Positions 6,694 to 21,509 of a stretch of 21,645 nucleotides of DNA are shown in pieces. A program made the translations under genes and the position numbers. Positions within the stretch are counted from its first letter, which is position 1. Each line of letters begins with the position of its first letter. The notes under the pieces are model-generated. The model saw only the letters and a list, made by a program, of their open reading frames with translations. It was not told where the DNA came from and did not search any database. This DNA is from Pseudomonadota bacterium (GTDB taxonomy: Bacteria > Bdellovibrionota > FAC87 > UBA2466), in contig JAYUGC010000175.1 of NCBI GenBank assembly GCA_043767805.1, positions 1-21,645 of the forward strand. The letters are read 5' to 3'.

Positions 6694-6708
6694 GGGCCAT
6701 TTCGTCCC
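6694..6708. promoter_or_regulatory. Putative enhancer (UAS) palindrome, single clear copy
   Basis: GGGCCATTTCGTCCC matches the GGGACA-N3-TGTCCC family. Only a weak half-site lies 20 bp downstream. Confidence 0.55.
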
Positions 6709-6797
6709 GCGAGTTTGCTTTCTGTCGTGGTCTGAGCTTCCGTCGCGGCGTCGCCTGGCTTGCCAACTCGAAGGGCAAAACCGAGTGCCGTGAATGC

Positions 6798-6813
6798 TGG
6801 CACGTCACGTGCT
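6798..6813 (+). promoter_or_regulatory. sigma54 -24/-12 promoter for the NtrC-family regulator
   Basis: TGGCACGTCACGTGCT; GG-N10-GC. Confidence 0.75.
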
Positions 6814-6872
6814 CATTAGAGAAGGAGAGCTCCAGTTCAGGCTGTAAAACATGGGCAGAGGCAAGGAAGCAT

Positions 6873-6907
6873 GGGACACTATGTCCCGCGTTAGGTCAAA
6901 AAGGCCC
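6873..6907. promoter_or_regulatory. Tandem UAS-type palindromes in the regulator's leader (possible autoregulatory operator)
   Basis: Perfect GGGACACTATGTCCC (6873-6887) plus AGGTCAAAAAGGCCC (6893-6907), 20-bp offset. Confidence 0.7.
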
Positions 6908-6925
6908 ATTGAAAGGTAAAGACGG

Positions 6926-8380
6926 ATGAAAACCACTAAGGGCCATGTAGTCGTCGCGGATGATGATAGGGAAATGCGAGGACTCATTACGGATTTCCTT
7001 ACGACCGATGGCTACCAAGTCTCGGCGTTTCCCTCCGCCGTCGAGGCCCTGAAGGCCCTTCGGCCCGGAGGAGGCTTGGAAGCCGGGCAGGGCACCGATG
7101 TCGACGTCATCGTCTCCGACCTTCGCATGGCCCAGATGGACGGAATGCAGTTTCTCAAAACCATCAAGGCCGAGCGCCCGGACATTCCGGTGGTTTTAGT
7201 TACCGCCTTCGGAAGTATCGACACCGCCATCGAGGCGATGCGAAACGGCGCCTATCACTACGTGGTGAAGCCGTTCAAGTTGGCTGAAATGAGCGTGACC
7301 GTGGAGCACGCCCTGGAGCGTCGGCAACTAACTCGCGACAATCAGATCCTTCGCCGCGAAGTAAAAAAGAAATACGGCGTCTCGGGGCTTCTTGGAAAAA
7401 GCACGGCGATGCAATCCGTTTTCGATTTGATCGGGCGAGTCGCCACCTCTACCGCGAACGTGCTCATTAACGGGGAAAGCGGCACGGGAAAAGAAATGGT
7501 GGCCCGCGCGATACACAGCTCCGGTCCTCGGGCCAAGCAGCCGTTCATTGCCATCAACTGCACCGCCATTCCCGAGACTCTTCTGGAGTCCGAGCTTTTT
7601 GGGCATGCGAAGGGCTCCTTCACCGGAGCCACCAGCCGCAAGAAAGGACTCATTGAGGAAGCCAACGGAGGAACACTCTTTCTGGACGAGATCGGTGACA
7701 TGAGCCCGCCCCTCCAGGCCAAACTCCTGAGAGTTTTGCAAGAGCGCAAGATTCGTCCGGTGGGCGACAATCACTTTTATGACGTCGACGTGAGAGTGGT
7801 CTCGGCGACTCATAAGGATCTCAAGGCCGCCATCCGAGACGAGCGTTTTCGCGAAGATCTCTTTTACCGGCTGAGCGTGATTCCCATCGTCATTCCACCT
7901 CTGCGTGAGCGTCCGGAGGACATTCCGCTTTTGGCCGAGCATTTTCTGGAAAAATACTCGGCCGCGAACGCCGTTCCCGGCGGAAAGCGAATCACCGGCC
8001 TTACCAAAGGGGCGCTTTCCAAGCTGATGAGCCTTCGTTGGAAAGGCAACGTACGCGAGCTCGAAAACGTCATGGAACGAGCGGTGGTGCTTTGCCCGCA
8101 AACGATCATCGACGTCTCCGACATTCCCGATCCGCAATCGGCCGGTCCCGACGAGGCGATGCGAGTGGTTACGGGTGATTTTCCGACGGTGGCCCAGCTC
8201 GAAGAGCGTTACATTCGCCTGGTCTTGGAAAAGACGGCGGGTCGTAAGGATAAGGCTTCCCAGATTCTCGGCATCCATCGCCGCACGCTGTACCGCAAGG
8301 AACGAGATTACGGGTGGGTGACCGAAGACGCGGAGATGGAAGGCGGCACGGAACCGAAAGACGAGGTCTCCAAGCGTTAG
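6926..8380 (+). CDS. NtrC/AtoC-family sigma54-dependent response regulator (receiver - AAA+ - Fis HTH)
   Basis: Receiver VADDD…IVSDLRM…KPF; Walker A GESGTGKE; ESELFGHAKGSFTGA; Walker B LFLDEIG; FREDLFYRL; GNVRELEN; HTH ASQILGIHRRTLYRK. Confidence 0.97.
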   Translation: MKTTKGHVVVADDDREMRGLITDFLTTDGYQVSAFPSAVEALKALRPGGGLEAGQGTDVDVIVSDLRMAQMDGMQFLKTIKAERPDIPVVLVTAFGSIDTAIEAMRNGAYHYVVKPFKLAEMSVTVEHALERRQLTRDNQILRREVKKKYGVSGLLGKSTAMQSVFDLIGRVATSTANVLINGESGTGKEMVARAIHSSGPRAKQPFIAINCTAIPETLLESELFGHAKGSFTGATSRKKGLIEEANGGTLFLDEIGDMSPPLQAKLLRVLQERKIRPVGDNHFYDVDVRVVSATHKDLKAAIRDERFREDLFYRLSVIPIVIPPLRERPEDIPLLAEHFLEKYSAANAVPGGKRITGLTKGALSKLMSLRWKGNVRELENVMERAVVLCPQTIIDVSDIPDPQSAGPDEAMRVVTGDFPTVAQLEERYIRLVLEKTAGRKDKASQILGIHRRTLYRKERDYGWVTEDAEMEGGTEPKDEVSKR

Positions 8381-9486
8381 GCTTTCGGTACGCGCACGGT
8401 GAAAGTGGTGCCAGCCCCTTGGGGTAATTTCACGCCGATGGATCCCTGCCACCCGCGCACGATCTGATCGCAAATGGGTAAGCCCAGGCCCGTTCCGACT
8501 TCGGGCGCTTTGGTCGTGAAGAAGGGTTTGAAGATCTCGTCGAGATGCGGCTCGGGGATGCCACAGCCGGTGTCGCTCACGTCCATTTCCCAGTGATCGT
8601 CTTTAAGGCGAGCTTCGATCGTCAAAACATGGTTGCGTGTGCGTCCCTGCTCGATTTCGGACTCGATGGCTTGGATGGCATTGAGCAGGAGATTGAGGGC
8701 GACCTGCTCGAATAGAGTAGGTTCCGCGAGGATGGCCACCTCCTCACCCAGCCGGTTCTCTAACCGAATGCCGTGCTGGGCCAGCTGCGGGGCAAGTAAG
8801 TCGAGGACCTTGTCGAAAATCAGTTTGGGACGAACCGCGGAGAGCGTATCGGTCTTCGTGCCCCGGGCCAAATGCAAGAGGCTGTACATCAGCCGGGCGA
8901 TGCGATCGATTTGATTGACGACGATATCGAGATTTTTGCGGGCCGGTTCGTTCTCTTTCATCAAAAGCGCCAGGTACTCGGCCCGGCCGCGAATGACCCC
9001 GAGGGGATTGCCAATCTCGTGAGCGAGGCCGGCGGAGATTAGCCCCAAAGAGGCCAGGCGATCTTGATGGAGAAGCTGGGCTTCCATCGCTTTTTTTTCC
9101 GTGATGTCGACGGCAATTCCCATGTAGCCCACCAGTTGCCCCGCATCGTTTCGAAAGGGCGTGATGGTGAGAAAGACGGGAACCTCGTGCCCGTCCTTCG
9201 CGCGGTTGACCAGCTCGCCCTTCCAGTAGCCCACTTTCGGATCGGCGATTTGCCTCCACATCTTGCGGTAAAAGACTTCGTCTTGATGCGGGGAGCGAAG
9301 GAGAGCGGGGGTAGCGCCTATGGCCTCCTGCGCGCTGTAGCCGTAAACCCTCTGCCAGGCGCGGTTTACATAGTGAAGCCGTCCGAGCAAGTCGGTGAGC
9401 ATGACCGTATCGTTCGAATCATCCACGCAGCGGTGAAAGACCGAAGGGTCGTCGACCAAGGAGGGAATGAAAGGGGGAACCGGCAT
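8377..9486 (-). CDS. Cytoplasmic PAS-domain sensor histidine kinase (NtrB-like); start uncertain (9486 or 9498)
   Basis: PAS/PAC ([13 protein letters not shown]…[12 protein letters not shown]), H-box [12 protein letters not shown]-box [26 protein letters not shown]. Convergent with the regulator, with overlapping stop codons. Confidence 0.93.
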
Positions 9487-9498
9487 TAGGCTCTTCAT

Positions 9499-9514
9499 TG
9501 CAAAGCCACAGCCA
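9499..9514 (-). promoter_or_regulatory. sigma54 -24/-12 promoter for the PAS kinase
   Basis: Minus strand TGGCTGTGGCTTTGCA; GG-N10-GC. Confidence 0.7.
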
Positions 9515-9534
9515 GCCTCGGGCAGCCTGGGCGC

Positions 9535-9569
9535 GGGCCCAAATGTCAGACCGTAGGCCAAAATGTCCC
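9535..9569. promoter_or_regulatory. Tandem UAS palindromes
   Basis: GGGCCCAAATGTCAG (9535-9549) plus AGGCCAAAATGTCCC (9555-9569), 20-bp offset. Confidence 0.7.
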
Positions 9570-9599
9570 CTCGCCTGCCGGGGGCTGCCCTCGCGGGGG

Positions 9600-9615
9600 T
9601 GGCATGGTCGCTGCA
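9600..9615 (+). promoter_or_regulatory. sigma54 -24/-12 promoter for the MBL hydrolase
   Basis: TGGCATGGTCGCTGCA; GG-N10-GC. Confidence 0.75.
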
Positions 9616-9627
9616 ACTCTCCTGAGG

Positions 9628-10986
9628 ATGCGACTACAATTTTTGGGCGCCACCGGAACGGTGACCGGATCGAAATACCTCGTCGAAAAGGATGAGGTGA
9701 GAATCCTGGTCGACTGTGGCCTCTTTCAGGGAGAGAAAAACCTTCGTTTGCAGAACCGGGATGAGTTCCCCGTCCCACCCGGAGATATTCAGACCGTCCT
9801 TCTCACGCACGCTCACCTCGATCACTCAGGCTATCTGCCGCTTCTAGTCCGAAACGGATTTCGGGGCGAAGTTTATGCGACTCCGGCCACCGAAGCGTTT
9901 TGCCGCATTCTGCTTCCCGACAGCGGGCGGCTGCAAGAAGAGGAAGCCCACTACGCCAATCGCGCCGGCTATTCAAAACACCACCCGGCTCGTCCTCTCT
10001 ATACGTACGATGACGCCGTGAACTGCCTTACTGCTTTCGATCCCGTGCCCTTCGGAAAATCCCTGGGCCTGGGAGGCGGGCTGCAGTTTCATTTCGAGCG
10101 GGCCGGCCATATTCTCGGCGCGTCGATGGTCATGCTCAAAGCGAACGATAAGAAACTACTTTTCACCGGCGATCTCGGCCGGCCGGGAGATCCGGTGATT
10201 TTCCCGCCGAGTCCCATCGAGTCCGCCGACTATCTCGTCTTGGAGTCCACTTACGGAGACCGGCTGCACAAACCAGTGGACTGGCTGAGCGAGCTCGAGG
10301 CGGTTTTGCTCAGAACCATACTGAGGAGGGGAGTGGTCGTGATTCCGGCGTTCTCCGTCGGTAGATCGCAGACCTTGCTCTACGGTCTCTACCGTCTTAG
10401 GGAGGCAAAGCGCATCCCGAACGTTCCCATTTTTCTGGATAGCCCTATGTCGGAGGAGGCGGTGCGAATATTTCGCCGTTTTCAGGGCGAGCATCGCTTG
10501 AGCCCCGAAGAGTGCGCGGGAACTTACGACGTCGCCAAGTACGTCCGATCTTCCGAGGAGTCCAAAGCACTGAATAATCGCAAAGGGCCCATGATCATCG
10601 TCTCGGCTTCCGGCATGGTCACGGGCGGACGCGTGCTTCACCACATCAAAGAGCGGGCGCCCAATCCGGACAACACGATTCTCCTTACCGGTTTTCAAGC
10701 CAATGGGACACGGGGGGCGGCGCTCCTTGGCGGGACGCGCACCGTAAAGATTCACGGGGAACTAGTCGCGGTGAACGCGGAGATTGCTTCGCTGGACAAT
10801 CTGTCGGCGCACGCCGATCAAGGAGAAATCTTAAGCTGGCTGTCTCATTTCAAGCGTCCTCCCGAAACGACCTTCATTACCCACGGCGAGCCGGAGGCCG
10901 CCAGCGCACTGGCGAGCGCCATCGAAAAAAAACTGGGATGGAAGTGCCACGTGCCGCACTACCTGGAAAAGGTGGATTTGAAATAG
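9628..10986 (+). CDS. MBL-fold metallo-hydrolase, beta-CASP family (putative ribonuclease)
   Basis: MRLQFLGATGTVTGS, LVDCGLFQG, THAHLDHSG, AGHILG, FTGDLG, ESTYGDR, SASGM, LSAHAD, HGE. Confidence 0.95.
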   Translation: MRLQFLGATGTVTGSKYLVEKDEVRILVDCGLFQGEKNLRLQNRDEFPVPPGDIQTVLLTHAHLDHSGYLPLLVRNGFRGEVYATPATEAFCRILLPDSGRLQEEEAHYANRAGYSKHHPARPLYTYDDAVNCLTAFDPVPFGKSLGLGGGLQFHFERAGHILGASMVMLKANDKKLLFTGDLGRPGDPVIFPPSPIESADYLVLESTYGDRLHKPVDWLSELEAVLLRTILRRGVVVIPAFSVGRSQTLLYGLYRLREAKRIPNVPIFLDSPMSEEAVRIFRRFQGEHRLSPEECAGTYDVAKYVRSSEESKALNNRKGPMIIVSASGMVTGGRVLHHIKERAPNPDNTILLTGFQANGTRGAALLGGTRTVKIHGELVAVNAEIASLDNLSAHADQGEILSWLSHFKRPPETTFITHGEPEAASALASAIEKKLGWKCHVPHYLEKVDLK

Positions 10987-10987
10987 C

Positions 10988-11983
10988 TCAGGGGGCAAAG
11001 ACTTGATTGGTGAGCGGCCGCCCCTGCTCGAACTCGGTTGCGTTTTGGAGCGTCGTGTCGGCTATGTTGTCGAGCGCTTCCTGAGTGAGGAAACCCTGAT
11101 GAGAGGTGATCAAGACGTTTGGAAACGTCAGCAGCCTGGCCAGGACGTCGTCCTGCAGAACCTGACCCGACATGTCCTTGAAGAAGACGCTTTCCTCTTC
11201 TTCGTAAACGTCGAGGCCGGCCCCTCCGAGCTTCCCCTGTTTGAGGTGCTCGACGAGGGCTTTGGTGTCGATGAGAGCTCCGCGGCCTGTATTGATGAGA
11301 AGGGCGCCGGGCCGCATGCGAGAGAGGGCTTGGTCGTCGATAAGATGACGAGTCTGAGGACCAAGCGGAAGATGTAAGGTGATGATCTGAGATTTTTCGT
11401 AAAGGGCTTGAAGGGAAACGTACTCGGCACCGAGGGCCGCTACTTCCTGGCGAGGAAAAGGATCGTGTGCGAGCACTCTGCAGCCAAAGCCCGTCAGGAT
11501 GCGGACCATCACCGTGCCGATTTGACCCGTGCCAACGACGCCCACGGTTTTGCCGTGCATGTCGAACCCGACCAGGCCATCGAGCGAAAAATTCAGCTCC
11601 CGCACGCGGGAATAAGCGCGGTGGATCTTTCGATTCAAAGTCAGCATCAGGGCGATGGCATGCTCGGCCACCGCGTAGGGCGAATAGCGAGGCACTCTTA
11701 CGACGGTAAGCCCCAGGGTTTTCGCCGTGTTGAGATCGACGTGATTGAACCCTGCCGATCGCAAGGCGATGAGCCGGACGCCTTCCTCTTTGAGCTGAAT
11801 CAAGGTGTCCGCACTCAAATTGTCGTTGGCGAAAGCGCACACTCCTTCATGTCCCCGGGCTAGGGTGGCCGTTTCGCGGGTCAGCCGGGGCTCAAGAAAG
11901 GTGAGCTGGTGCTCATATTTTTTATTGAGTCTTTCCAGGCATTCCCGCTCGAAGGAATGGGTATCAAAGACGGCTAGTTTCAT
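10988..11983 (-). CDS. ldhA: D-lactate dehydrogenase / D-2-hydroxyacid dehydrogenase
   Basis: ALRSAGFNHVD, VRVPRYSPYAVAEH, Rossmann GVVGTGQIG, INTGRG, LDVYEEE, RLLTFPNVLITSHQGFLT - close to LdhA signatures. Confidence 0.9.
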   Translation of the reverse strand: MKLAVFDTHSFERECLERLNKKYEHQLTFLEPRLTRETATLARGHEGVCAFANDNLSADTLIQLKEEGVRLIALRSAGFNHVDLNTAKTLGLTVVRVPRYSPYAVAEHAIALMLTLNRKIHRAYSRVRELNFSLDGLVGFDMHGKTVGVVGTGQIGTVMVRILTGFGCRVLAHDPFPRQEVAALGAEYVSLQALYEKSQIITLHLPLGPQTRHLIDDQALSRMRPGALLINTGRGALIDTKALVEHLKQGKLGGAGLDVYEEEESVFFKDMSGQVLQDDVLARLLTFPNVLITSHQGFLTQEALDNIADTTLQNATEFEQGRPLTNQVFAP

Positions 11984-12009
11984 GGCTGCTTTCCAAATGG
12001 GGTTAGGAA

Positions 12010-12032
12010 GCGGGGGCCTCGAGGGCCCCCGC
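12010..12032. other. GC-rich stem-loop between the secreted-protein gene and ldhA
   Basis: GCGGGGGCC-TCGAG-GGCCCCCGC, perfect 9-bp stem, no long U-tract. Confidence 0.6.
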
Positions 12033-12043
12033 GCTTTCCGATG

Positions 12044-12802
12044 TTAGTTTAGGGGGGAAGTGGGATCCATCGGAAACTTCTTGTGAGGCTCGATGAGCCG
12101 ATTGACCGCTTTACCGTTCATGGAGCGGGCGTGGAGAAGATAGGCATGCTGACCCAGAATCAGGGAGAGAGCCCTTTCCTGGCGAAACGGATAGTAGCCT
12201 GCGGTACAAACGCCCGAAGAAGAAGGTGTGTATTGAATGACGGGCATCACGACGACGACGTCGGTGTAGATTTCTACCCTGATGTCCAAGAGGCTCAAGC
12301 AATCGTTCGGAAAGATGCCGGAGACGACTACGTCATGCCCAAAGGGCATTCTGGGTTTCAGCGTCACGTCACTCACCGGAGCATAAGGAGCGTCGTCGGT
12401 CCCGGGGCCGGTGTTGGTGGCGCGCAAGATAGGCAGCGTGCCCAGAGACGATTGGCTCGTACCGTCCCAAATCTCGTAGTCGCCCGCGGGAAGCACGGGG
12501 AGGTTGGTCATCTGCTCGAAAGGCATCTTGAGGGGCCAGCAATGAGTGCCGGTGTACTGATACGCCTTTTGCACCACGGTAATGCGCCGGTGAACCGGAT
12601 CCACTTTGACGTCTTGATCGGCCAGCTGAAAACAGAGATCGGAGAACTGCCCGGTCACCATGAATTGAGGCACGTCGTTGCTATCAAACCCCACCGGGAC
12701 GTAAGCCTTGGCGAGGGCAACCGAGACGAGCGCCGGGTCGGTACCTTGCGCCGTTGCGAAAGAAGCGACCATCCAGATGCCCAACGTGAGAAAGCGAATC
12801 AT
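12044..12802 (-). CDS. Secreted hypothetical protein, two-repeat Cys-pair family (paralogue 1)
   Basis: GGGAG RBS, signal peptide, YVPVGFDSND, DDAPYAPV and YLLHARSMNGKAVN, shared with 16765-17472. Confidence 0.85.
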   Translation of the reverse strand: MIRFLTLGIWMVASFATAQGTDPALVSVALAKAYVPVGFDSNDVPQFMVTGQFSDLCFQLADQDVKVDPVHRRITVVQKAYQYTGTHCWPLKMPFEQMTNLPVLPAGDYEIWDGTSQSSLGTLPILRATNTGPGTDDAPYAPVSDVTLKPRMPFGHDVVVSGIFPNDCLSLLDIRVEIYTDVVVVMPVIQYTPSSSGVCTAGYYPFRQERALSLILGQHAYLLHARSMNGKAVNRLIEPHKKFPMDPTSPLN

Positions 12803-12847
12803 AAATCTCCCTACTGAAATCGAATTTAGGAAACGTTGACGCGCTTG

Positions 12848-12863
12848 TGCAATCGCCGGACCA
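12848..12863 (-). promoter_or_regulatory. sigma54 -24/-12 promoter for the secreted protein-ldhA unit
   Basis: Minus strand TGGTCCGGCGATTGCA; GG-N10-GC. Confidence 0.72.
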
Positions 12864-12893
12864 CAAAGGTCGTGTGGCGTGAAGAGAAAGTGT

Positions 12894-12928
12894 GAGGCAA
12901 TTTGACCCGAGATCGGACTTTTCGTCCC
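12894..12928. promoter_or_regulatory. Tandem UAS palindromes
   Basis: GAGGCAATTTGACCC (12894-12908) plus CGGACTTTTCGTCCC (12914-12928), 20-bp offset. Confidence 0.7.
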
Positions 12929-12970: not shown

Positions 12971-12986
12971 GGGCCCGGCCCTTGCA
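12971..12986 (+). promoter_or_regulatory. sigma54 -24/-12 promoter for the CBS-USP-eRF1-like operon
   Basis: GGGCCCGGCCCTTGCA; GG-N10-GC with TTGCA. Confidence 0.65.
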
Positions 12987-13013
12987 ACAGTTAGGTGGAA
13001 AGGAATGCCACGT

Positions 13014-13421
13014 ATGAGCCCGCCAATCTCCGATTTCATGACGACGATCCCCGTGCAAGTCGATAAGAGCGCTTCCCTCGAGACGGCTCGGCGCCTGCTC
13101 GAACGTTACGGTATCCGGCATTTGCCGGTGATGGCGGACGGAAAACTAGTCGGGGTCGTCACCGAACGGGAAATGAACGTAGCCCTCGCTGTCGCAAGAT
13201 CCCATAGTCTCGAAGTGACGGTAGAGACCGCGATGCAGTCCCCGGCTTTCCAGGTCGGCAAGAACGTACCCGTGGGCGATGTGGCCGAGCGAATGGCCAA
13301 AGAGAAGTTCGGCTGCGCCATCGTCGTGCATGAGGAAAAGATCTGCGGCATCTTTACGACTACCGATGCCCTTTTTCTACTGACCAAATATTGCAAGAAA
13401 GAAGGAAAAGACCATGTCTAA
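13014..13421 (+). CDS. CBS domain pair protein (alternative start 13005)
   Basis: IRHLPVMADGKLVGVVTERE and FGCAIVVHEEKICGIFTTTD. AAGGA RBS lies 9 nt before ATG 13014. Confidence 0.9.
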   Translation: MSPPISDFMTTIPVQVDKSASLETARRLLERYGIRHLPVMADGKLVGVVTEREMNVALAVARSHSLEVTVETAMQSPAFQVGKNVPVGDVAERMAKEKFGCAIVVHEEKICGIFTTTDALFLLTKYCKKEGKDHV

Positions 13422-14394
13422 ATCTCGGCTCATTTGGCCCATAAACCCTTTTGCCGACGAGAAAACTTATTTCAAGCATGCCTTGAAGGTCATCGGCGAG
13501 TTTGCGGCGGCGTCCGGCCTCCAGGTCGAGCCGGTGTATGTCTTATCCCCTCCCGGAATAATCCTGCCGACGGGTTACGTGCTGGACAAAATGGAACCGG
13601 CGGAACCGAAAGTGAAAGCGGCTTGGGAAGCGCTTACCAAAGGGAGCAAGTACGCGGGCTCCTTCCTTCCACCGACGGTTCTGACCGATGCTTCTCTGTC
13701 TAAGTATGGAATGTCACGCGCGGTCGTGGACTATGCGAAGACTGTCGGCGCGGAAGCCTTGGCGGTGGCGACGCATGGACGGAAAGGGGCCGCGCGTTTC
13801 GTGATGGGAAGCTTTGCGGAAAGTCTCCTTCATGCGGCGGATTTGCCCCTCTTCGTTTTCAATCCCTGCGCGGAAAAAGCGGGCCGCACTCGCAAGATTC
13901 TCTTTCCCGTGGAGCTACCGCTGAGTCCGACGACACCGGTGGATCAAGTCATTCAGTTCGCCAAAGCGAGCAGGGCGAAGCTCGTTTTCTTTCATAAGGT
14001 GGATTATCTGAACCAGTTCACGGCGGAGCCTCTATTTCAGATGCCAACGTATCGAGGCTATTTGGAACAAGATCTAACGGCTCGGCGGGATGAGCTCAGC
14101 AAGTTGTTGAGCCGCTCGCGCTCGTGCGGGGTAGTGGCGGAAGCGATTTTGGACCAAGGGACCGCCTACGTCCCCGACGGAATTCTGGCCACCGCCAGAA
14201 AGCAGGGCGTGGATCTCATCGCCATGGTGTCAGGCGCGGGACGAGTTCAGTCCGCGCTTCTGGGTAGCGTGACCCGACAGGTGCTCCGGACCGCCAAGCA
14301 ACCCGTCTGGGTGGTGCATCCCGAGCCAGTCGCGGCCCGCCAAACCATTTTTCCTAAAATCGAGGTCGTAACCTCAAGAAAGGCTCGTCAGTAG
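13414..14394 (+). CDS. Tandem-domain universal stress protein
   Basis: ATHGRKGAARFVMGSFAESLL; RKILFPVEL; DLIAMVS…LLGSVTRQVLRTAKQPVWVV. Overlaps the CBS gene by 8 bp. Confidence 0.9.
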   Translation: MSKSRLIWPINPFADEKTYFKHALKVIGEFAAASGLQVEPVYVLSPPGIILPTGYVLDKMEPAEPKVKAAWEALTKGSKYAGSFLPPTVLTDASLSKYGMSRAVVDYAKTVGAEALAVATHGRKGAARFVMGSFAESLLHAADLPLFVFNPCAEKAGRTRKILFPVELPLSPTTPVDQVIQFAKASRAKLVFFHKVDYLNQFTAEPLFQMPTYRGYLEQDLTARRDELSKLLSRSRSCGVVAEAILDQGTAYVPDGILATARKQGVDLIAMVSGAGRVQSALLGSVTRQVLRTAKQPVWVVHPEPVAARQTIFPKIEVVTSRKARQ

Positions 14395-14395
14395 T

Positions 14396-14767
14396 ATGAA
14401 CAATTACATCGTTTTCTTGGACCAGGAGCACGCCAAGCTGTTTGAGCTGCTTCCCGACGGAGTGGAGGCTCACAAGCTGCAACGCCAAGAAATCCGGCAT
14501 CACAGCGGCGTGGAGAAATCGCAAACGGCGCACAAAGACGGATCAAAGTTTTTTCACGAGGTAGCGACCCATCTCGGCAAGGCCGATCAGGTGCTTCTTG
14601 TCGGCCCGGGGCTTGCGAAGAAATCGTTTCAGACGCATTTGGAGAAACATCATCATGCCGAGCTTTTCAAGAAGGTAATCGGCGTTCAGACCGTGGATCA
14701 TCCGACGGATGAGCAGCTCGTAGCGCTCGCTAAGAAATTCTTCAAAGCTCATCTCCGTTTCGAGTAG
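14396..14767 (+). CDS. eRF1-domain/host-attachment-like small protein ('translational machinery protein' type)
   Basis: VFLDQEHAKLF…FFHEVATHL…VLLVGPGLAK…VIGVQTVDHPTDEQLVALAKKFF pattern; His-rich. Confidence 0.75.
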   Translation: MNNYIVFLDQEHAKLFELLPDGVEAHKLQRQEIRHHSGVEKSQTAHKDGSKFFHEVATHLGKADQVLLVGPGLAKKSFQTHLEKHHHAELFKKVIGVQTVDHPTDEQLVALAKKFFKAHLRFE

Positions 14768-15021
14768 ATCTCAATTTGGTGCTTCTAGGCATCATGCCCA
14801 TAGATTGCCTCGCCATCAAAGACGTCGGCTTGGAGGTTCAGCCGAACGTGGTGGTGGTGATGCCGCGTCTCACGCGCATTGCGGGAATGGCGTGCCGGGC
14901 GGGAAATTATCCGTTTCTCAAGGTGGTGCCAGCTGCCAGCGCACTTCCCCGGGGGATCTACTTACTCCACGTCCGCTCCATGGGGGGTCGTTCAATCAAC
15001 AAAATTATCGCCGGTAACTGA
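14768..15021 (+). pseudogene. 5'-truncated remnant of the two-repeat Cys-pair secreted protein family (paralogue 3)
   Basis: GIMPIDCLAIKDVGLEVQPNVVVVMP…ACRAGNYPF…YLLHVRSMGGRSINK aligns to the C-terminal third of 12044-12802. No signal peptide, no RBS. Confidence 0.75.
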
Positions 15022-15028
15022 AGAAGCG

Positions 15029-15059: not shown

Positions 15060-15364
15060 ACTCCGGATCGGGAGACTCGCTCAGATCCAAGAGTGTGCGT
15101 TTTCCGTCCTTGAGCTGAGTGGCGCCTCGGATCGTCTCGATGGAGGCCGTCTCGGGATTCACGGAGACGTCCACGACATACACCATGAGTCCGCCTGAAG
15201 TGAGCGAGAGTATCTTGGTCGTCTTGTCTTTCTTTTTGCGGAACGCGCCCGATTTATTGACTGACTTCCTCGTGCGCGCGTTCAACCGGTTTGAGCTCTT
15301 CGACCGAAGTAATTTCTCCTTGAACGAGGCTGCAGAAGAAGAGGGGAAGGAGTAGGCGGCGCAT
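15058..15364 (-). pseudogene. Disrupted small secreted protein (stop/frameshift near 15240-15256)
   Basis: GGAG RBS, then ATG 15364 MRRLLLPLFFCSLVQG… which stops after 36 codons at TAA 15254-15256. Coding-like sequence (KILSLTSGGLMVYVVDVSVNPETASIETIRG) continues in another frame to 15058. It has its own sigma54 promoter. Confidence 0.5.
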
Positions 15365-15400
15365 GGGTATCTCCGTCGTTGAGGGGCTAGAGAGATCGAT

Positions 15401-15416
15401 TGCAAGAGCGACGCCA
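15401..15416 (-). promoter_or_regulatory. sigma54 -24/-12 promoter
   Basis: Minus strand TGGCGTCGCTCTTGCA; GG-N10-GC. Confidence 0.75.
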
Positions 15417-15445
15417 GGGTTTGAGCTTCGAGGTCCGGCCCTCGA

Positions 15446-15483
15446 GGGACATTTCATCCCCCGCTGAAGGGACAATTTCACCG
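15446..15483. promoter_or_regulatory. Tandem UAS palindromes
   Basis: GGGACATTTCATCCC (15446-15460) plus GGGACAATTTCACCG (15469-15483), 23-bp offset. Confidence 0.65.
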
Positions 15484-15513
15484 ATCGGACCTCAAGTTCC
15501 ACGCTGGCGGCCA

Positions 15514-15529
15514 TGGCATGACGCCTGCA
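15514..15529 (+). promoter_or_regulatory. sigma54 -24/-12 promoter for the second USP
   Basis: TGGCATGACGCCTGCA; GG-N10-GC. Confidence 0.75.
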
Positions 15530-15560
15530 ACTAGGTTTGACCAAAGCGAAAGGTGAAACC

Positions 15561-16565
15561 ATGACGGATCGAGTGAAGCCAGCTTCCAAATGGATTTGGG
15601 CAGTAGATGCCTTTCATGAGCAGCCCGTGAGTCAGTGGAGAGCGGTGGAGGCCCTGCGTTCCTCACTCGGCGGAGTCCAGCCGGCCATTCAGCCCGTCTC
15701 TTGCCTGGCTCTGGGACAATTCAATCCCGGGCTCGGAGTTTTCGAGGAGAAATGGCATCGACTAGCGGCTCACGCTGAGAAAAAATTGGAATCGCTCCTA
15801 AAACAGGGTGAGCCAAAGGGCCTACTGATGCCACGGCTGCTGCGGCAAGAAGATCCCGTGATCTCTTTCGGCGTGGATGCCCTGGTTAGATTCGCGTTGG
15901 AAGAGGGCGCCGAGGGAATCGTGCTGACTTCTCACGGCCGCAAGGGCCCGGCGCGGTGGGTGCTTGGTAGCTTCGCCGAGACGCTCGTGCTGCGCTCTCC
16001 TCTGCCGGTACTCGTGGTAAATCCGCGCGCGGCTCGCCCGAAACGGATTAAGACCATCGTTTTCCCCACTGACTTCAGCGCCGGCTCTCGGGAGGCCTTC
16101 GGCCGCACCTTGGCGATCGCTTCCCGGATAAAAGCCAAGATTGTCTTGTTCCACAAAGTTTCAACGCTCTACCCTGAAGTCGGCAATGCCACCGCTTCCG
16201 GAAAACGAATCGATCCCGTTCGGGAGAGAAGGGATGAGCTGAAGGCCGAGGGAGCCGCCTGGATCGCGTTCGCCGCCGGGATGGGCGTCAAAGTGAGGGT
16301 CATACTCGACCTCAAAACGGGGCGAGTCCTTCCCGCTCTGATGAGAGTCATCGACAGCGTGGGAACTGACAGCATGGTAGCGATGGCGTCAACGAGCGGT
16401 CTTTTTAAATCCCTGATGCTAGGCAGTCTCTCGCGTCAGGTGCTGCGCGAGGCGCGCCGGCCAGTGCTTATCTTTCACGCTGAACAAGAGTCTTTGACCG
16501 AAGTCTTCCTGGCCCAGCTAAACCGTTTCGCTTTCGCTTACGCCGCGAATCCCGTCGTCCGATAA
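15561..16565 (+). CDS. Tandem-domain universal stress protein (paralogue of 13414-14394)
   Basis: AAGGTG RBS; WIWAVDAF; TSHGRKGPARWVLGSFAETLV; KTIVFPTDFS; MLGSLSRQVLREARRPVLIF. Confidence 0.9.
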   Translation: MTDRVKPASKWIWAVDAFHEQPVSQWRAVEALRSSLGGVQPAIQPVSCLALGQFNPGLGVFEEKWHRLAAHAEKKLESLLKQGEPKGLLMPRLLRQEDPVISFGVDALVRFALEEGAEGIVLTSHGRKGPARWVLGSFAETLVLRSPLPVLVVNPRAARPKRIKTIVFPTDFSAGSREAFGRTLAIASRIKAKIVLFHKVSTLYPEVGNATASGKRIDPVRERRDELKAEGAAWIAFAAGMGVKVRVILDLKTGRVLPALMRVIDSVGTDSMVAMASTSGLFKSLMLGSLSRQVLREARRPVLIFHAEQESLTEVFLAQLNRFAFAYAANPVVR

Positions 16566-16598
16566 GCCATTTCTCCTCTATCGTCGATATCCCAAAGT

Positions 16599-16634
16599 GA
16601 GTCTCCTTGCCCCAAACATGGGTCAGTTTGTCTC
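16599..16634. promoter_or_regulatory. Tandem UAS palindromes (degenerate)
   Basis: GAGTCTCCTTGCCCC (16599-16613) plus GGGTCAGTTTGTCTC (16620-16634), 21-bp offset. Confidence 0.55.
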
Positions 16635-16675
16635 TCTTTTCCTTCTCCGAATTTTCTTTCTCTCATGAAACGAGT

Positions 16676-16691
16676 TGGATCGCTGATTGCA
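16676..16691 (+). promoter_or_regulatory. sigma54 -24/-12 promoter
   Basis: TGGATCGCTGATTGCA; GG-N10-GC. Confidence 0.65.
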
Positions 16692-16764
16692 CAGCGTTTC
16701 GGCATACGAATCTTTCTTGCTTTGCCAAAAGCAGGCGAGAAAAGTCATTACATGGGAGTTCTTA

Positions 16765-17472
16765 ATGCGTAGTACCAAGTGGATTCTTTCATTGCTCTGT
16801 TTCGCCAGACTGGCCGCGGGGGCGGTAAGCGGAGCGGTTCCGGTGCCCAATATTTCCCTCTTCGTGCCTCAAGGATTCGACGATAACGACGAGGTTGTGG
16901 TCACTCTGGATGGATACTTGCCCAATGCCTGCTATCAGCTCACGGAAGCGGTAGTCACCCGCGATCTGACCAACCACCGAATTCTCGTTCAGCAGATGGC
17001 CTACGTGAGCCCCGGGCCGTGCGTGCAGGTGCTGAGCCCGTACGTCAATACCGTGCGGATCGGTCAGCTTCCGGTCGGCAGCTACATGATAGCGAGCGCT
17101 TCGGGAAGTTTGCGCAAAACTTTGAACATTACACGCGCGCCCATTCCCACCAAGGACGACTACTTGTACGCGCCCATCGATTCCGCGATGGTCGCGCCGT
17201 ACCAAGGGGGTTACGTGGCCGTCTTGACCGGACGGTATACGAATTCCTGTCTTCGCATGCGCGCCATTCCGGTAAGAGCCACAGGTGACACGGTTCAAGT
17301 GTTTCCCATCATGGAGTTTCGCAAAGCGGACGAGGCTGGAAGGCCTTGTCGCAAAGTGGAGCTTCCGTTTCGCGTGACCCAAAGACTCCCCGCGCTTTCT
17401 CGGGGACGCTACCTCCTGCACGTTCGGAGCCTGAACGGCCGGTCCGCTAATACGGTCTTCTCGGTAGAGTAG
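16765..17472 (+). CDS. Secreted hypothetical protein, two-repeat Cys-pair family (paralogue 2)
   Basis: GGGAG RBS before ATG 16765, signal peptide, FVPQGFDDND, DDYLYAPID, YLLHVRSLNGRSAN. Confidence 0.85.
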   Translation: MRSTKWILSLLCFARLAAGAVSGAVPVPNISLFVPQGFDDNDEVVVTLDGYLPNACYQLTEAVVTRDLTNHRILVQQMAYVSPGPCVQVLSPYVNTVRIGQLPVGSYMIASASGSLRKTLNITRAPIPTKDDYLYAPIDSAMVAPYQGGYVAVLTGRYTNSCLRMRAIPVRATGDTVQVFPIMEFRKADEAGRPCRKVELPFRVTQRLPALSRGRYLLHVRSLNGRSANTVFSVE

Positions 17473-17487
17473 ATCGCCATCCTACTG

Positions 17488-17520
17488 GCCCACTCGGCTT
17501 TTTGCCGGGTGGGCTTTTTT
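17488..17520 (+). terminator. Rho-independent terminator
   Basis: GCCCACTCGGC-TTTTT-GCCGGGTGGGC followed by TTTTTT. Confidence 0.85.
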
Positions 17521-17607
17521 AATACCTCGCCTACCTCTCAAACTGATCCGGCTCTCCCCACTGAAGGAAGACGCAAGCCATCACTCAAGTGAGCCAAACG
17601 TGGTTAT

Positions 17608-18012
17608 TTATGCCTTTGCTTTGAACGGGACGGAGGGGAGGGGGAGCAGGGCCTGCTCTATTTGCTCTTTTAGGTAGCTCAACGGAAAAGGCTTGATGAG
17701 ATAGGCGGCTGCGTTGAGTCGCGTGGCCTCCTGCCGTTCCTCGGGACTTCCTTCCCCCGTAAACAGCAGAATGGGCAGATTTGGGTGCTCACCGTGGGCG
17801 ACGATGAGAAAATTGAAACCGTTCATGGGGCGCAAGGTGGTGTGGCAGACGATGGCACGGGGAACCTCAGGGCTTTCCAAGGCCAACAACGCATCGACGG
17901 CCGAGCTGAAGCCGCGAACCTCATACCCTTGAGTCACCAGAAAATCCTGGAGAAGCGATCGCATCGGAGCTTCATCGTCGATGACCCAGATCATGTTTTT
18001 AGTAGGGGGCAC
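17608..18012 (-). CDS. Single-domain response regulator with His at the phospho-acceptor position (pseudo-receiver)
   Basis: WVIDDE, IVCHTTLRPMNG (D->H at residue 57), LFTG, YLIKPF. Confidence 0.85.
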   Translation of the reverse strand: MPPTKNMIWVIDDEAPMRSLLQDFLVTQGYEVRGFSSAVDALLALESPEVPRAIVCHTTLRPMNGFNFLIVAHGEHPNLPILLFTGEGSPEERQEATRLNAAAYLIKPFPLSYLKEQIEQALLPLPSVPFKAKA

Positions 18013-18054
18013 TCTGACTCACTCCGGTCCTTGGTTACTCCCTGGATCTAGAAG

Positions 18055-18070
18055 AGCAAGGGGCGTGCCA
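18055..18070 (-). promoter_or_regulatory. sigma54 -24/-12 promoter (consensus match)
   Basis: Minus strand TGGCACGCCCCTTGCT. Confidence 0.88.
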
Positions 18071-18100
18071 AAAAAATTAACCCGTAGCCAGCGAAGGCTC

Positions 18101-18135
18101 GGGAAGGATTGTCTGACTGTGGGACTTATTGTCCG
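18101..18135. promoter_or_regulatory. Tandem UAS palindromes
   Basis: GGGAAGGATTGTCTG (18101-18115) plus GGGACTTATTGTCCG (18121-18135), 20-bp offset. Confidence 0.7.
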
Positions 18136-18218
18136 CCAGGTGGTAGAACCCCACGATACTCTTTATGCAGACTCTTGATTGGTGCCTGGCAAAGGCCCAC
18201 GTTAAGAGCGAGGTAACG

Positions 18219-19778
18219 ATGAACCGCGCTTGGACCGAAGGCACTTTTCAGGGACTATTGGACTCCGCTCCGGATGCGATGGTCGTCGTGCGAGCGGATG
18301 GCAATATCGTCTTAGTCAATAGTCGGGCTGAGCACATCTTCGGTTACACTCGCGGCGAACTTCTGGGCCAAAAAATAGAGATCCTGCTGCCCGCGCGCTT
18401 TCAAAAAAGTCATATTCCGCATCGGGACGGCTATTTCAAGCTGCCGCGGGTCCGTCCCATGGGCGAAGGACTCGATCTTTACGGATGTCACAAGGACGGT
18501 CACGAGTTTCCGATCGAGATCAGCCTGAGCCCTCTACAGACCGCCGAAGGCCTTCTGGTGACGAGCGCGATTAGAGATACGACTGAGCACCGAAAGGCGG
18601 AGGCCGAGCTGAAAAGGGCCCGGGAAGCGGCGGACTCGGCGAATCGAATCAAGAGTGAGTTTCTCGCCAATATGAGCCACGAGATCCGAACTCCGCTCGC
18701 CGGCATTCTCGGTTATCTCGAAATGCTCGAGCTCTATTGCAAAACCGACGAGGATCGCAAGGACTACATCGCCAAAGCCAAGCGAAACGCGAATAATCTG
18801 ACGGAGCTCATCAACGATATCTTGGACCTTTCGAAGGTCGAGGCGGGAGCTCTGCAAGTCGAGCAACTTAAGTTCTCTCTCTCCGTCGAGATCGAAGGCG
18901 TTCTTTCACTTTTGCAGGGCCAAGCGGAAGAGAAGTCGATTGTCTTGGAATCGCTCGTGGAGCGTCCGATTCCTTTAAATATAGTGTCGGACCCGAAACG
19001 CTTTCGGCAAATTCTCATCAACGTTCTGGGAAATGCCCTTAAATTCACGCAGGCGGGCAGAGTCACGCTCCGGGTTCGGTATGTGAAAGCAACGGGTAAC
19101 AGACCCGTCCTCGAGCTCAGTGTTACCGACTCGGGATGTGGCATTGCCGCGGAAGCGCACACTAAGCTTTTCGAGCCTTTCGTGCAGGCCGACAGTTCCA
19201 CGACGAGAAAATACGGAGGCACCGGATTAGGCCTCGCGCTGTCTCGAAATCTGGCACGGGCCTTGGGAGGCGACTTGGTTTTGACTGAGAGCGTTCCTGG
19301 TAAGGGCAGTACGTTCACGATTACCATCGACCCTGGTAACTGCGATTCGTTAGGAGAAGGTTGCGAACGCGTGGGCCGGGCGTTGCCGGCGGCCAATAGC
19401 GACTCCCTTCGCATCGACGGAGTGCGTATCCTGCTAGCCGAAGACAACACGGACAACGAGCTGCTCATTTCTCAATTTTTGACCAGGGCGGGAGGCAAAG
19501 TCTCCATCGTGCGCAATGGGCTGGAGGCCGTTGAAATGGCGCTTAGCGAGAGGTTCGACGTCGTCTTAATGGATATTCAGATGCCTGTGATGGATGGGTA
19601 TGCGGCTTCCAGGAAGTTAAGGAAAGAGAGCTTCGCGAGCCCCATCTTCGCGTTGACGGCGCATGCGATGATCGAAGAGCGCGAGAAGTGCCGAGAGGCA
19701 GGCTGTGACGAGATCTTTACCAAGCCTTTGGATTTCGCGGTCCTGCTCGGCACCATTCAGAAATATTTGAAGCACTAA
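18219..19778 (+). CDS. PAS-domain hybrid histidine kinase/response regulator (FixL-like PAS)
   Basis: [19 protein letters not shown]…[17 protein letters not shown]…[44 protein letters not shown]; receiver LLAEDN…VLMDIQMP…TKP. Confidence 0.95.
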
Positions 19779-19781
19779 GCC

Positions 19782-20243
19782 CTACTGGGGAACCTCGTGG
19801 CTTGTCGCCTTTTCCCAGAGCGGGCGGCCGGACAGCTCCCGTAGAATCGCTTTGTGCTTTCCGCGCAGGATTTCGCGGGCAATCAGCGTCGGTTTGCCCC
19901 CGAGCCGAATGGTGACTCCGACCACTACGACCGGCTCGCCTTTGGTGAAGAGTAAGTCACGCTCCAGCACGAACCAACGGGGCCCGACGTGCACGTCGAT
20001 GTTGCCGCGTTCTCCTTGAAGCTTGAGAGAGATGCCGGGCTCCATCCCCGCAAGCGGGGTGATGTCTTCGGTGCGAAGCACTTTGCCTTCGATGCGTGCC
20101 TCCGATCCCGCCTGGTAAAGATGGTGATAAGCGCCGGAAGTGCCCCAACTGCCGCTGGTGGCGGCGATGGTCTCGGCGTGGCTCAGGGGAAGGTACGCGA
20201 CGACCCAGAGCAGCAGGATTAGGGTAATGGCATGGGTTCGCAT
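19782..20243 (-). CDS. Exported protein, OB-fold-like (VHVGPxWF motif, MamS/MamX-domain-like)
   Basis: GGAGAG RBS, signal peptide ending SHA-E, IEGKV…VHVGPRWF…GEPVVVVG…LIAREI…LRELSGRPLW. Confidence 0.7.
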   Translation of the reverse strand: MRTHAITLILLLWVVAYLPLSHAETIAATSGSWGTSGAYHHLYQAGSEARIEGKVLRTEDITPLAGMEPGISLKLQGERGNIDVHVGPRWFVLERDLLFTKGEPVVVVGVTIRLGGKPTLIAREILRGKHKAILRELSGRPLWEKATSHEVPQ

Positions 20244-20273
20244 GGAAGTCTCTCCGTTGAATAGGTCGGGATT

Positions 20274-20738
20274 CTATTTTCGAAATTTGGCTACTTTGGT
20301 CCGCTTCGAAGTGAGGGGCTGCGGCCAGAGGTCTCTGAGCTCCTTGGGAAGGCACTGAACGACGTCTTCAATCTCCCCCGCGCTTACTTTTTGAGACAGA
20401 AAGACGAAAACGTCCTGAACCATCATTTCGATTTGCTCGTCGGAAAGTTCCTTGAATTGCGGCGAGAGTTTCGCGAGAAAGTCATCCGCGTACCGGCTCT
20501 TCTCCCTCTTTGCCGCTGGTCTCCAACCTTCATAAAAAAGTCCCTTGATGATCAGAGGAAACTGAGAAGCCAGATCGGCGCCTTCCGCGGGCGGCAGATG
20601 CTCGCGTAGCTCCTGCAAGGTGAACCTGAGGGCCCGGCAGGCATAAGCCTCATCCTCGGTATTCATCTCCTTCATCAGCTCGCCAAGCCATTGCCGCGTG
20701 GTTTCCAGACTGGGTTTAAACTCGTTCAACGTGGTCAT
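20274..20738 (-). CDS. DUF2267-family protein
   Basis: AGGAG RBS before ATG 20738; TRQWLGEL…AYACRALRFTLQELREHLP…DLASQFPLIIKGLFYEGW…VSAGEIEDVVQCLPKELRDLWP. Confidence 0.85.
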   Translation of the reverse strand: MTTLNEFKPSLETTRQWLGELMKEMNTEDEAYACRALRFTLQELREHLPPAEGADLASQFPLIIKGLFYEGWRPAAKREKSRYADDFLAKLSPQFKELSDEQIEMMVQDVFVFLSQKVSAGEIEDVVQCLPKELRDLWPQPLTSKRTKVAKFRK

Positions 20739-20769
20739 AATCGCTCCTGGGTTAAATAGATTTCCTGGA

Positions 20770-21288
20770 TCAGTGATCGCGCCAATCGTCTTCCTCATCC
20801 TCGCTGGGCGCCTCGGCCTGCAAAGACTGTGAAAAATCCATTTCTCTCGGCTGCGCGATCTTCCGCCAGGTCTCAAACGGTACGCAAACCGCGTCGCCGC
20901 GGGCTCCCCCGGAGAAAGAAATGTCTTTGGTGATCTTGAGACTCGGATCCATCCAAATATCGATACCCGGCCAGTGGCGCAGGGGAGGAATCGCCCCCAC
21001 TTCACAGTCCGAGAAGAAGAACGCGGCTTCGTCTTCCGAAAGAAGCCTTGCGCATAGGGAAGGCGCGAGCCGGCGGACCTTTTCGAGAGACACTCGCCGG
21101 CAGGCGGGAAGCACGAGCAGCAAAATGGCATTATCGATCTCTACGGCAACGGTTTTGGCGACTTGGCGACCGCTGATGTGCTCGGCCTCCGCGATTTCTT
21201 GGGCAGTGAAGGCCGGCCGGTGATGAAGCTCGCGAAAGGGGGCTCCAGCCGAGCTCAGCGTTTCTTTGACCCAGCGTAATGTGCTCAT
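20770..21288 (-). CDS. YbaK/EbsC (prolyl-tRNA editing-like) family protein
   Basis: AAGG RBS before ATG 21288; HRPAFTAQEIA…VAKTV…LLVLPA…FSDCEVGAIPPL…MDPSL. Confidence 0.88.
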   Translation of the reverse strand: MSTLRWVKETLSSAGAPFRELHHRPAFTAQEIAEAEHISGRQVAKTVAVEIDNAILLLVLPACRRVSLEKVRRLAPSLCARLLSEDEAAFFFSDCEVGAIPPLRHWPGIDIWMDPSLKITKDISFSGGARGDAVCVPFETWRKIAQPREMDFSQSLQAEAPSEDEEDDWRDH

Positions 21289-21417
21289 GGGCGACCTTTC
21301 CAGAAGAAATCGCCGGAGGCGAGGCCAGTTCGATTCCGACGCATTTAGGCGGCAGCGAATTTGCACTCCGCACCGGTTCCAACGATCTTGACGGGTGATC
21401 CTTTCACGCAAACGTTT

Positions 21418-21433
21418 AGCAGGATGCGTGCCA
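21418..21433 (-). promoter_or_regulatory. sigma54 -24/-12 promoter for the YbaK-DUF2267-exported protein operon
   Basis: Minus strand TGGCACGCATCCTGCT. Confidence 0.8.
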
Positions 21434-21474
21434 CGTCGAAGAAAGAGAGAATTTCCGGCCCGGGAGGTCTTGGG

Positions 21475-21509
21475 GGGAATTTTAGTCCCTTAGTGGGCCA
21501 CTCTGTCGC
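21475..21509. promoter_or_regulatory. Tandem UAS palindromes
   Basis: GGGAATTTTAGTCCC (21475-21489) plus GGGCCACTCTGTCGC (21495-21509), 20-bp offset. Confidence 0.7.

Follow-up and report, generated by a model that had tools for sequence, protein, structure and literature searches.

The stretch analyzed here, referred to as the window, is a whole contig of 21,645 nucleotides (JAYUGC010000175.1, or C175) from a 4.5-Mb genome of the Bdellovibrionota (GCA_043767805.1), and its sigma-54 promoters are accompanied by a 15-bp palindrome, GGGACA-N3-TGTCCC, which mostly occurs as a tandem pair. Comparison among genomes indicates that the pair is very probably the binding site of the sigma-54 activator encoded in the same window (6926..8380, + strand; 484 amino acids, receiver-AAA+-Fis-type helix-turn-helix (HTH)), as the initial annotation had proposed. 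The motif, its spacing, its phasing, its conservation, its co-occurrence with the activator, and the domain types of the proteins are established by computation. The overall explanation, an activator-bound, helically phased enhancer that would serve a low-oxygen programme, is considered likely from the sequences compared.

Palindromic sites in the window

The initial annotation had listed 15 copies of the palindrome and their tandem offsets, and all 15 were recovered in register at those positions, with 0–4 mismatches to GGGACA-N3-TGTCCC. Within the pairs, the two copies are offset by 20 bp in five cases, by 21 bp in one, and by 23 bp in one, and a further copy stands alone. The sites, which carry no strand, are as follows.

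6694..6708, single palindromic site, 52 bp from a minus-strand sigma-54 element and 89 bp from a plus-strand one
6873..6907, pair, offset 20, 59 bp 3' of the activator gene's sigma-54 element, within the predicted 5' leader of that gene
9535..9569, pair, offset 20, common to divergent promoters 20 and 30 bp away
12894..12928, pair, offset 20, common to divergent promoters 30 and 42 bp away
15446..15483, pair, offset 23, common to divergent promoters 29 and 30 bp away
16599..16634, pair, offset 21, 41 bp 5' of a plus-strand promoter
18101..18135, pair, offset 20, 30 bp 5' of a minus-strand promoter
21475..21509, pair, offset 20, common to divergent promoters 41 and 31 bp away

A lack of enrichment over coding background had been named as grounds for rejecting the motif. 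The seven window sites with two or fewer mismatches all lie in non-coding DNA (2,887 positions), and coding DNA (18,744 positions) contains none. Using leave-one-region-out matrices, the score of each held-out pair was reached at 1–7 of the approximately 4.5 million genome positions. A second matrix was built from the best site 5' of 21 activator orthologues (23 loci examined), leaving out the window's own locus, one truncated, five ATPase-less, and one degenerate locus; its top eight sites in the window fall one in each of the eight claimed locations. With this orthologue-only matrix, the weak partner in several pairs (9535, 16599, 18101, and 21495) scores 5–7 bits. Across 109 sites, conservation is highest for G at -5 (96%) and G at -7 (83%), followed by a C-A step at -3/-2 (74% and 72%) and an A/T centre; position -4 is A in 61% and T in 16%. 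No Rfam match was obtained in the window or in locus L002.

Sigma-54 elements and the geometry of pair and promoter

A consensus scan identified 12 clear sigma-54 (-24/-12) elements in seven intergenic regions of the window.

6626..6641, - strand, cytochrome c-TPR gene
6798..6813, + strand, activator gene
9499..9514, - strand, flavin adenine dinucleotide (FAD)-type PAS kinase gene
9600..9615, + strand, beta-CASP metallo-hydrolase gene
12848..12863, - strand, gene for a 252-amino-acid signal-peptide protein, then the D-2-hydroxyacid dehydrogenase gene
12971..12986, + strand, gene run for CBS protein, universal stress protein (USP), and hypothetical protein
15401..15416, - strand, facing a doubtful 115-amino-acid open reading frame (ORF)
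15514..15529, + strand, second tandem USP gene
16676..16691, + strand, gene for a 235-amino-acid signal-peptide protein
18055..18070, - strand, single-domain receiver gene
21418..21433, - strand, gene run for YbaK-like, DUF2267, and 153-amino-acid proteins
21541..21556, + strand, gene cut by the contig end

The palindrome is present in all seven regions, the single copy at 6694 and the pair at 6873/6893 belonging to the same one. Four of the window pairs are placed between divergent promoters, 20–42 bp from both. For the plus-strand kinase gene beside 18101..18135, the scan detected no sigma-54 element. The contig end (21571-21645) cuts the island directly behind a pair-bearing promoter, and the regulon at this location is therefore probably larger than what is seen.

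The same arrangement was found in 40 gene-centred loci of other genomes (774 kb), which contained 50 pairs compared with a Markov-null mean of 8; a pair was present in 28 of the 40. Their offsets were 19 (5 pairs), 20 (16), 21 (23), 22 (3), 23 (1), and 26 bp (2), so that 44 of the 50 fall at 19–21 bp. For the distances from pair to promoter, the best-fitting period was 10.9 bp, with an R of 0.53 (n=50, comprising 36 distances from relatives, 12 from the window, and 2 from contig C11) that was reached by none of 2000 jitter nulls; the relatives alone (n=36) gave p ~2e-4 at 11 bp. Such helical phasing would be expected of a protein site that is obliged to face the polymerase. The features of an upstream activator sequence are thus found together: tandem palindromes, non-random positions near -24/-12 elements, and a co-occurring receiver-AAA+-Fis-type-HTH activator.

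Occurrence of the pair in the genome

A matrix of 94 sites, trained only on sites from other genomes, found 10 pairs of at least 19 bits at offsets of 19–23 bp in the entire genome, namely the seven of the window, two on contig C11, and one on contig C87; in three bands of control offsets, 4, 4, and 1 pairs were obtained. All seven window pairs are therefore within the 10 best pairs of the genome. Among 246 intergenic sigma-54-like elements, an upstream pair of at least 20 bits accompanies eight, all in the window, in a survey whose ORF mask dropped some true promoters, including three of the window and those of C11. A cluster on contig C3 (G000:C3, 754-15848) has 12 sigma-54-like elements around another activator, none with the palindrome site, and represents a separate regulon. 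Because the window holds all eight paired elements and none of the 12 elements of C3 has a pair, the palindrome pair is not a site general to sigma-54 promoters. The earlier statement that the motif occurs in every sigma-54 intergenic region is accordingly correct for the window and does not extend to the genome.

The two C11 pairs form further pair-plus-promoter units (L001:2619-9165 and 9158-11102) with distances of 39 and 40 bp. The first precedes a run of multicopper oxidase, CopB, gnd, and zwf-pgl genes, and the second precedes genes for small proteins, one of them a 61% paralogue of the product of window 19782-20243, in the vicinity of a heavy-metal ATPase. The pair on C87 precedes an apparent DAHP synthase, as judged by sequence, has no clear sigma-54 element, and is doubtful. 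The expectation that the motif would predict a regulon genome-wide was thus borne out by two convincing new promoters, both on C11, with none beyond them except the doubtful C87 pair. In addition, a strong single site (15.8 bits) is located 5' of a sigma-54 element on contig C131 (G000:C131 near 9167-9224), close to another activator gene; cross-regulation and chance are both possible explanations.

Assignment of the pair to the local activator

The genome encodes 17 full sigma-54 activators, and a strong pair lies within 5 kb of one of them, the local activator (26.1 bits versus 13.7 or less). The other 16 have different recognition helices and no strong pair within 5 kb. The recognition helix of the local activator hardly varies among orthologues, its columns R48, R49, T50, L51, R53, and K54 being invariant in 17 of 17. 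An orthologue is present in 27 of 38 genomes of the class and in 85 of 251 Bdellovibrionota genomes sampled. Pairs were found at 10 of 11 orthologue loci, in nine of them directly 5' of the gene, while 69 loci of non-orthologous activators gave five weak pairs, none at an activator gene start. A site of at least 10 bits stands 5' of 21 of 23 orthologues and, using the 94-site matrix, a pair was located no more than 230 bp from the start in 27 of 43 full-length orthologue loci.

Co-occurrence was also evaluated with a sequence-only, alignment-based pair model, which considers 150 or 44 candidates in each genome and overlooked known pairs in genome G022. In the class, the model matched 20 of 22 genomes with a full-length orthologue, 2 of 11 without, and none of the five genomes of a genus whose orthologue is ATPase-less. 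The class training sites came from 10 genomes; among non-training class genomes with the full-length gene, 11 of 12 were matched (10 of 11 with G014 set aside). Outside the class, where sample membership was inferred from listing order and family tallies, matches were obtained in 13 of 30 orthologue genomes versus 6 of 91 others. A strict paired-site pattern matched none of 38 genomes, nor the controls, and was too strict to be informative.

In the ATPase-less genus, the sigma-54 elements are kept and the pairs are gone from those promoters, one weak promoterless pair being present in L140. The receiver-HTH or HTH-only versions of the protein retain the same recognition helix, and several of these forms look independently derived as judged from their sequences.

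ATPase-less forms at loci: L140:9660-10310, L147:8968-9417, L148, L149
ATPase-less forms as proteins: P0209, P0213, P0228, P0230, P0232, P0243

The assignment of the site to the HTH of the local activator thus gained comparative support: the site is conserved at the genes of orthologues and tracks their presence, the pairs are lost where the ATPase is lost, and neither the 16 paralogues nor the 69 control loci show a strong pair.

In two order-mates, a conserved pair (L277:9816 and L283:9939) is located ~7 kb from a different activator, and no sigma-54 element was called within 130 bp of it. In G014 (L279:9311-9430, G014:C114), four near-perfect palindromes of 17–20 bits adjoin a DnaA-box array 5' of dnaN; the orthologue in this genome is diverged (~40% identity) and has a changed helix, and its own locus lacks a pair. 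A general role in origin binding was rejected, such arrays being found in 1 of 28 dnaN-upstream regions (one more was too short). The present genome also has a second, divergent DnaA-like protein (G000:C168:1202-2641), which falls under the curated cut-off.

The pair in the predicted activator leader

The pair at 6873/6893 is located downstream of the activator promoter, at about +50 to +84 from the inferred start. Among the 27 orthologue loci with a pair near the start, 17 have a sigma-54 element on the same strand upstream of the pair and none has one downstream, and 12 of the 17 have no divergent sigma-54 element in the stretch. Because of this reversed order and the missing divergent element, the pair is presumed to lie in the leader and to be kept for autoregulation, the sign of which could be positive or negative.

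Sensors, neighbours, and predicted targets

The island, from 5326 to the contig end, encodes the activator, two PAS kinases, a lone receiver, two tandem USPs, a CBS protein, a beta-CASP hydrolase, a D-lactate-dehydrogenase-like enzyme, DUF2267 and YbaK-like proteins, and several signal-peptide proteins.

5326..6489, - strand, signal-peptide cytochrome c-TPR protein with a putative class II cytochrome c-like four-helix bundle, haem-c motif, and TPR-like repeats
8377..9498, - strand, soluble PAS histidine kinase, likely cognate, PAS closest to 3ewk and NifL 2gj3
9628..10986, + strand, beta-CASP metallo-beta-lactamase-fold hydrolase, predicted target
10988..11983, - strand, D-lactate-dehydrogenase-like enzyme, probable target
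13005..14767, + strand, CBS-pair protein, tandem USP, and 123-amino-acid protein without Pfam match, predicted targets
15561..16565, + strand, second tandem USP, predicted target
18219..19778, + strand, PAS hybrid kinase with FixL-/DosP-like PAS
19782..21288, - strand, YbaK-like editing-domain protein, DUF2267 protein, and 153-amino-acid signal-peptide protein, predicted targets

Neighbours were counted in 49 orthologue loci from 46 genomes, three duplicates having been excluded, and in the 69 control loci. The best matches of the PAS domain of the 8377-9498 kinase are 3ewk (1e-27) and NifL 2gj3 (7e-17); 3ewk is MmoS, an FAD-binding protein, so the closest solved PAS domains are FAD sensors, and the kinase appears to carry a PAS of the NifL/MmoS FAD type. 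A homologue of this PAS is present in 32 of the 49 orthologue loci versus 1 of the 69 controls, and the kinase is likely to be the partner of the activator. The hybrid kinase at 18219-19778, with homologues in 8 of the 49 orthologue loci, matches FixL at E 1e-16, and its PAS has a histidine aligned with the haem ligand of FixL; it appears to carry a haem PAS of the FixL type.

Among the specific neighbours of the activator, the cytochrome c-TPR protein is the best conserved (35 of 49 orthologue loci, none of the controls). It has no Pfam family, and its invariant residues are C128, C131, H132, and M30, of which the methionine may be the second haem ligand. Its structure model (pLDDT 90) shows a cytochrome c'-like bundle and TPR-like repeats, with middling fold scores. 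The modelled bundle aligns with cytochrome c' at Z 9.4-9.8 over 110-115 residues (root-mean-square deviation 2.6-3.4), a Z below the caution level for helical bundles, and the Foldseek match to 1e83 has a probability of 1.00 but an E of 0.64. Its look-alike clusters in the Atlas belong to Bdellovibrionota and Myxococcota. A family of ~240-amino-acid signal-peptide proteins without Pfam match is represented in the window by two complete copies and a fragment (12044-12802, 16765-17472, and 14776-15021) and a further member on contig C66 near 49150; it is present in 17–20 of the 49 orthologue loci and in none of the controls.

In relatives, 70 proteins encoded downstream of pair-plus-promoter units include 11 CBS proteins, nine USPs, eight PAS kinases, three P1B ATPases, two hibernation factors, two D-hydroxyacid dehydrogenases, and one each of HSP20, HiPIP, and DUF2267. 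At two loci, L122 and L132, a P1B ATPase gene followed by cbb3 oxidase genes stands behind the pair. Distant pairs precede a dihaem cytochrome c and COX1-family gene pair, cytochrome c peroxidase, rhodanese, and HiPIP genes.

Outside the island, the contig starts with a 14-bp tandem repeat of about six and a half copies (1-95), placed after an SNF2-family helicase gene (89-3007). An ORF at 3174-4052 resembles fused dioxygenase-like and methyltransferase-like fragments and has no Pfam match, and an outer-membrane barrel gene (4067-4573) is apparently broken by a stop near 4168.

Comparison with known systems

The NtrC box and the ZraR/HydG site are bound by dimers of Fis-type HTH proteins; they have the same dyad spacing as the present palindrome and differ in the outer bases. 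Many orthologues of the window activator carry the JGI label "HydG." The activator itself scores under the curated NCBIfam cut-offs (AtoC, 464 of 714; NtrC, 444 of 559; ZraR, 402 of 760), and identity with the named equivalogs NtrC, ZraR/HydG, AtoC, NorR, and NifA was rejected, as it falls below the cut-off of every named model among the best 25 of 29 families. Binding of ZraR to a divergent spacer has been described, together with its autoregulation (PMC8249747), and the window pairs resemble its site in that one enhancer is common to divergent promoters.

The closest system in function is NmpRSTU of Myxococcus xanthus. Its description (PMC11841059) presents NmpR as a sigma-54 activator that has two 15-bp palindromes at each promoter, regulates its own operon and its kinases, and targets CBS, USP, and P-type ATPase-cbb3 operon genes. 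The paired palindromes are shared, as are the predicted self-regulation and CBS/USP targets, as is the cbb3 oxidase in the relatives L122 and L132. The arms and the spacer differ, and NmpR sites are 14–15 bp apart versus 4–8 bp here; the window sites do not match the NmpR consensus at its spacing. NmpRSTU also belongs to another phylum and uses a protoglobin sensor kinase, NmpU, versus PAS sensors here. Homologue and cluster look-ups for the activator returned no Myxococcus-named protein.

The tandem layout is not new, because offsets of 19–21 bp are already present for several activators in a table of predicted Desulfovibrio sites (PMC4641369). None of its 628 rows, compared by eye, matches the palindrome. 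The nearest published palindrome by eye is that of DVU2394, which has the same length, central step, and A/T-rich 3-bp centre, and DVU2394 shares with the local activator a one-residue variant of the sigma-54-contact loop. Its spacing is 32–34 bp versus offsets of 19–21 here, and the palindrome is not the same by eye at position -4. The TspR site of Acidithiobacillus caldus (PMC6335251) belongs to a sigma-54 two-component activator as well and has the same two hexamers, but in reverse order with a 4-bp spacer, and its targets concern sulfur oxidation. A metagenome scan for the TspR site returned at least 119 stretches, and the Acidithiobacillus locus was not recognized among the 80 of them that were inspected. 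FleQ, too, is reported to have activator sites downstream of a sigma-54 element (Jyot 2002), a precedent for downstream enhancers; its targets are flagellar, whereas here the gene with the downstream pair is that of the activator itself.

Neither the site nor its regulon was found described in the literature within scope, most subscription journals, RegPrecise, and bioRxiv supplements being outside it. The low-oxygen regulons of DosR, FixLJ-FixK, and Anr have USP, CBS, HSP20, hibernation-factor, and cbb3 outputs and haem-PAS sensing. They depend on NarL- or CRP/FNR-type factors with sigma-70-type polymerase, in contrast to the sigma-54 activator of the window.

Alternative explanations

Several observations weigh against the activator as binder or against low oxygen as its signal. 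A pair is missing before the gene at 16 of 43 full-length orthologue loci, of which several look operon-internal, and within ~10 kb at 9 of 36; 17 of 30 orthologue genomes outside the class have no model match under strict filters. Good pairs are kept in G036 (97% complete) and G002 (79%), where no orthologue was found, and the model match in G014 is at the replication origin and not at a promoter. Moreover, kin are not independent, and the matrix used on L116-L155 was trained on those same loci. As for the signal, the C11 targets are a less direct match to low oxygen, and this genome (100% complete) yielded no cbb3 oxidase above the cut-off and no protoglobin (PF11563, for which the control was matched in 10 of 14).

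The pairs in G036 and G002 would be explained if a different co-inherited factor, another activator or a CRP/FNR-type protein, bound them and the local activator were merely a target, and the pair downstream of the activator promoter does have a repressor-like position. This is improbable: sigma-54 promoters require an AAA+ activator (PMC4641369), the 16 other activators have different helices and no pair nearby (CRP/FNR proteins were outside the survey), and the pairs are gone where the activator has lost its ATPase. The true dyad could also be the junction between two sites, with the hexamers in opposite order, since the TspR site matches the junction of offset-19 pairs (PMC6335251). We consider this very improbable, as the dyad spacer is constant at 3 bp while the junction ranges from 4 to 8 bp, lone near-perfect 15-mers exist (6694 in the window; L095 and L098 among relatives), and the outer half-sites are conserved as well as the inner ones. 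Scarcely any probability is given to a general sigma-54 architectural element (IHF- or Fis-like), an RNA hairpin, or a repeat. The position of pairs between or beside sigma-54 elements and the four copies at the G014 origin would suit it; none of the C3 elements has a pair, origin arrays occur in one genome of 28, most pairs are upstream of inferred starts, and Rfam gave no match.

A further possibility, unlikely though appreciable, keeps the same binder and sites and replaces oxygen with another signal, such as general energy, copper, or nitrosative stress. The multicopper oxidase, CopB, gnd, and zwf genes on C11 are consistent with it, as are the lack of cbb3 oxidase and protoglobin in this genome and the HSP20, rhodanese, and cytochrome c peroxidase among the targets of relatives; the dihaem cytochrome c and COX1-family pair could be a nitric oxide reductase, and the genome has a separate sigma-54 stress island on C3. 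The FAD-type and haem-type PAS domains of the local kinases argue for oxygen or redox, and the P1B ATPase-cbb3 operon behind the pair in two relatives is an NmpR output (PMC11841059). On balance, low oxygen or redox is favoured as the signal.

Proposed mechanism and significance

In the proposed mechanism, the palindrome would be the upstream activator sequence of the activator at 6926-8380. Each palindrome would be bound by one HTH dimer, and two palindromes about two helical turns apart would place two dimers on one face of the DNA. The activator would be phosphorylated, most likely by the adjacent FAD-type PAS kinase, with the FixL-like hybrid kinase and the lone receiver perhaps modulating this step. 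It would then oligomerize and open in-phase sigma-54 promoters 20–50 bp away, one pair often serving two divergent promoters, and the pair in its own leader would provide autoregulation. The USP, CBS, and cbb3 targets together with the NifL-like and FixL-like sensors suggest a low-oxygen regulon that is NmpR-like with a different site and sensor. The output would be a low-oxygen, low-energy programme, comprising here the USPs, CBS proteins, and the D-lactate-dehydrogenase-like enzyme, to which relatives would add a ribosome-hibernation factor, HSP20, and cbb3 oxidase.

In a bolder reading, which is less likely than not, about a third of Bdellovibrionota might run a DosR/FixK-like low-oxygen dormancy through one sigma-54 activator. 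It would be switched on by itself from an enhancer pair in its leader, a positive loop that could be bistable, and its input would come from a soluble FAD-PAS kinase where other systems use a globin or FNR. The periplasmic cytochrome c-TPR protein would be the signature output, and the ATPase would have been lost repeatedly with the DNA-reading helix kept, the enhancer being lost too in the one genus checked.

The switch logic was already known from NmpR, and every activator family has its own site. What is new is the putative enhancer sequence, together with the regulon, of an activator family that is spread across the phylum, with compact two-way phased enhancers, a leader self site, and repeated ATPase loss. 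The analysis yields a candidate binding site, a probable cognate activator, sensors, and a target list for a regulator of a mostly uncultured phylum, and the site matrix can be used to identify regulon members elsewhere, in further genomes. Should oxygen be the signal, these bacteria would have arrived at the low-oxygen programme of Myxococcus NmpR by way of other sensors and another site.

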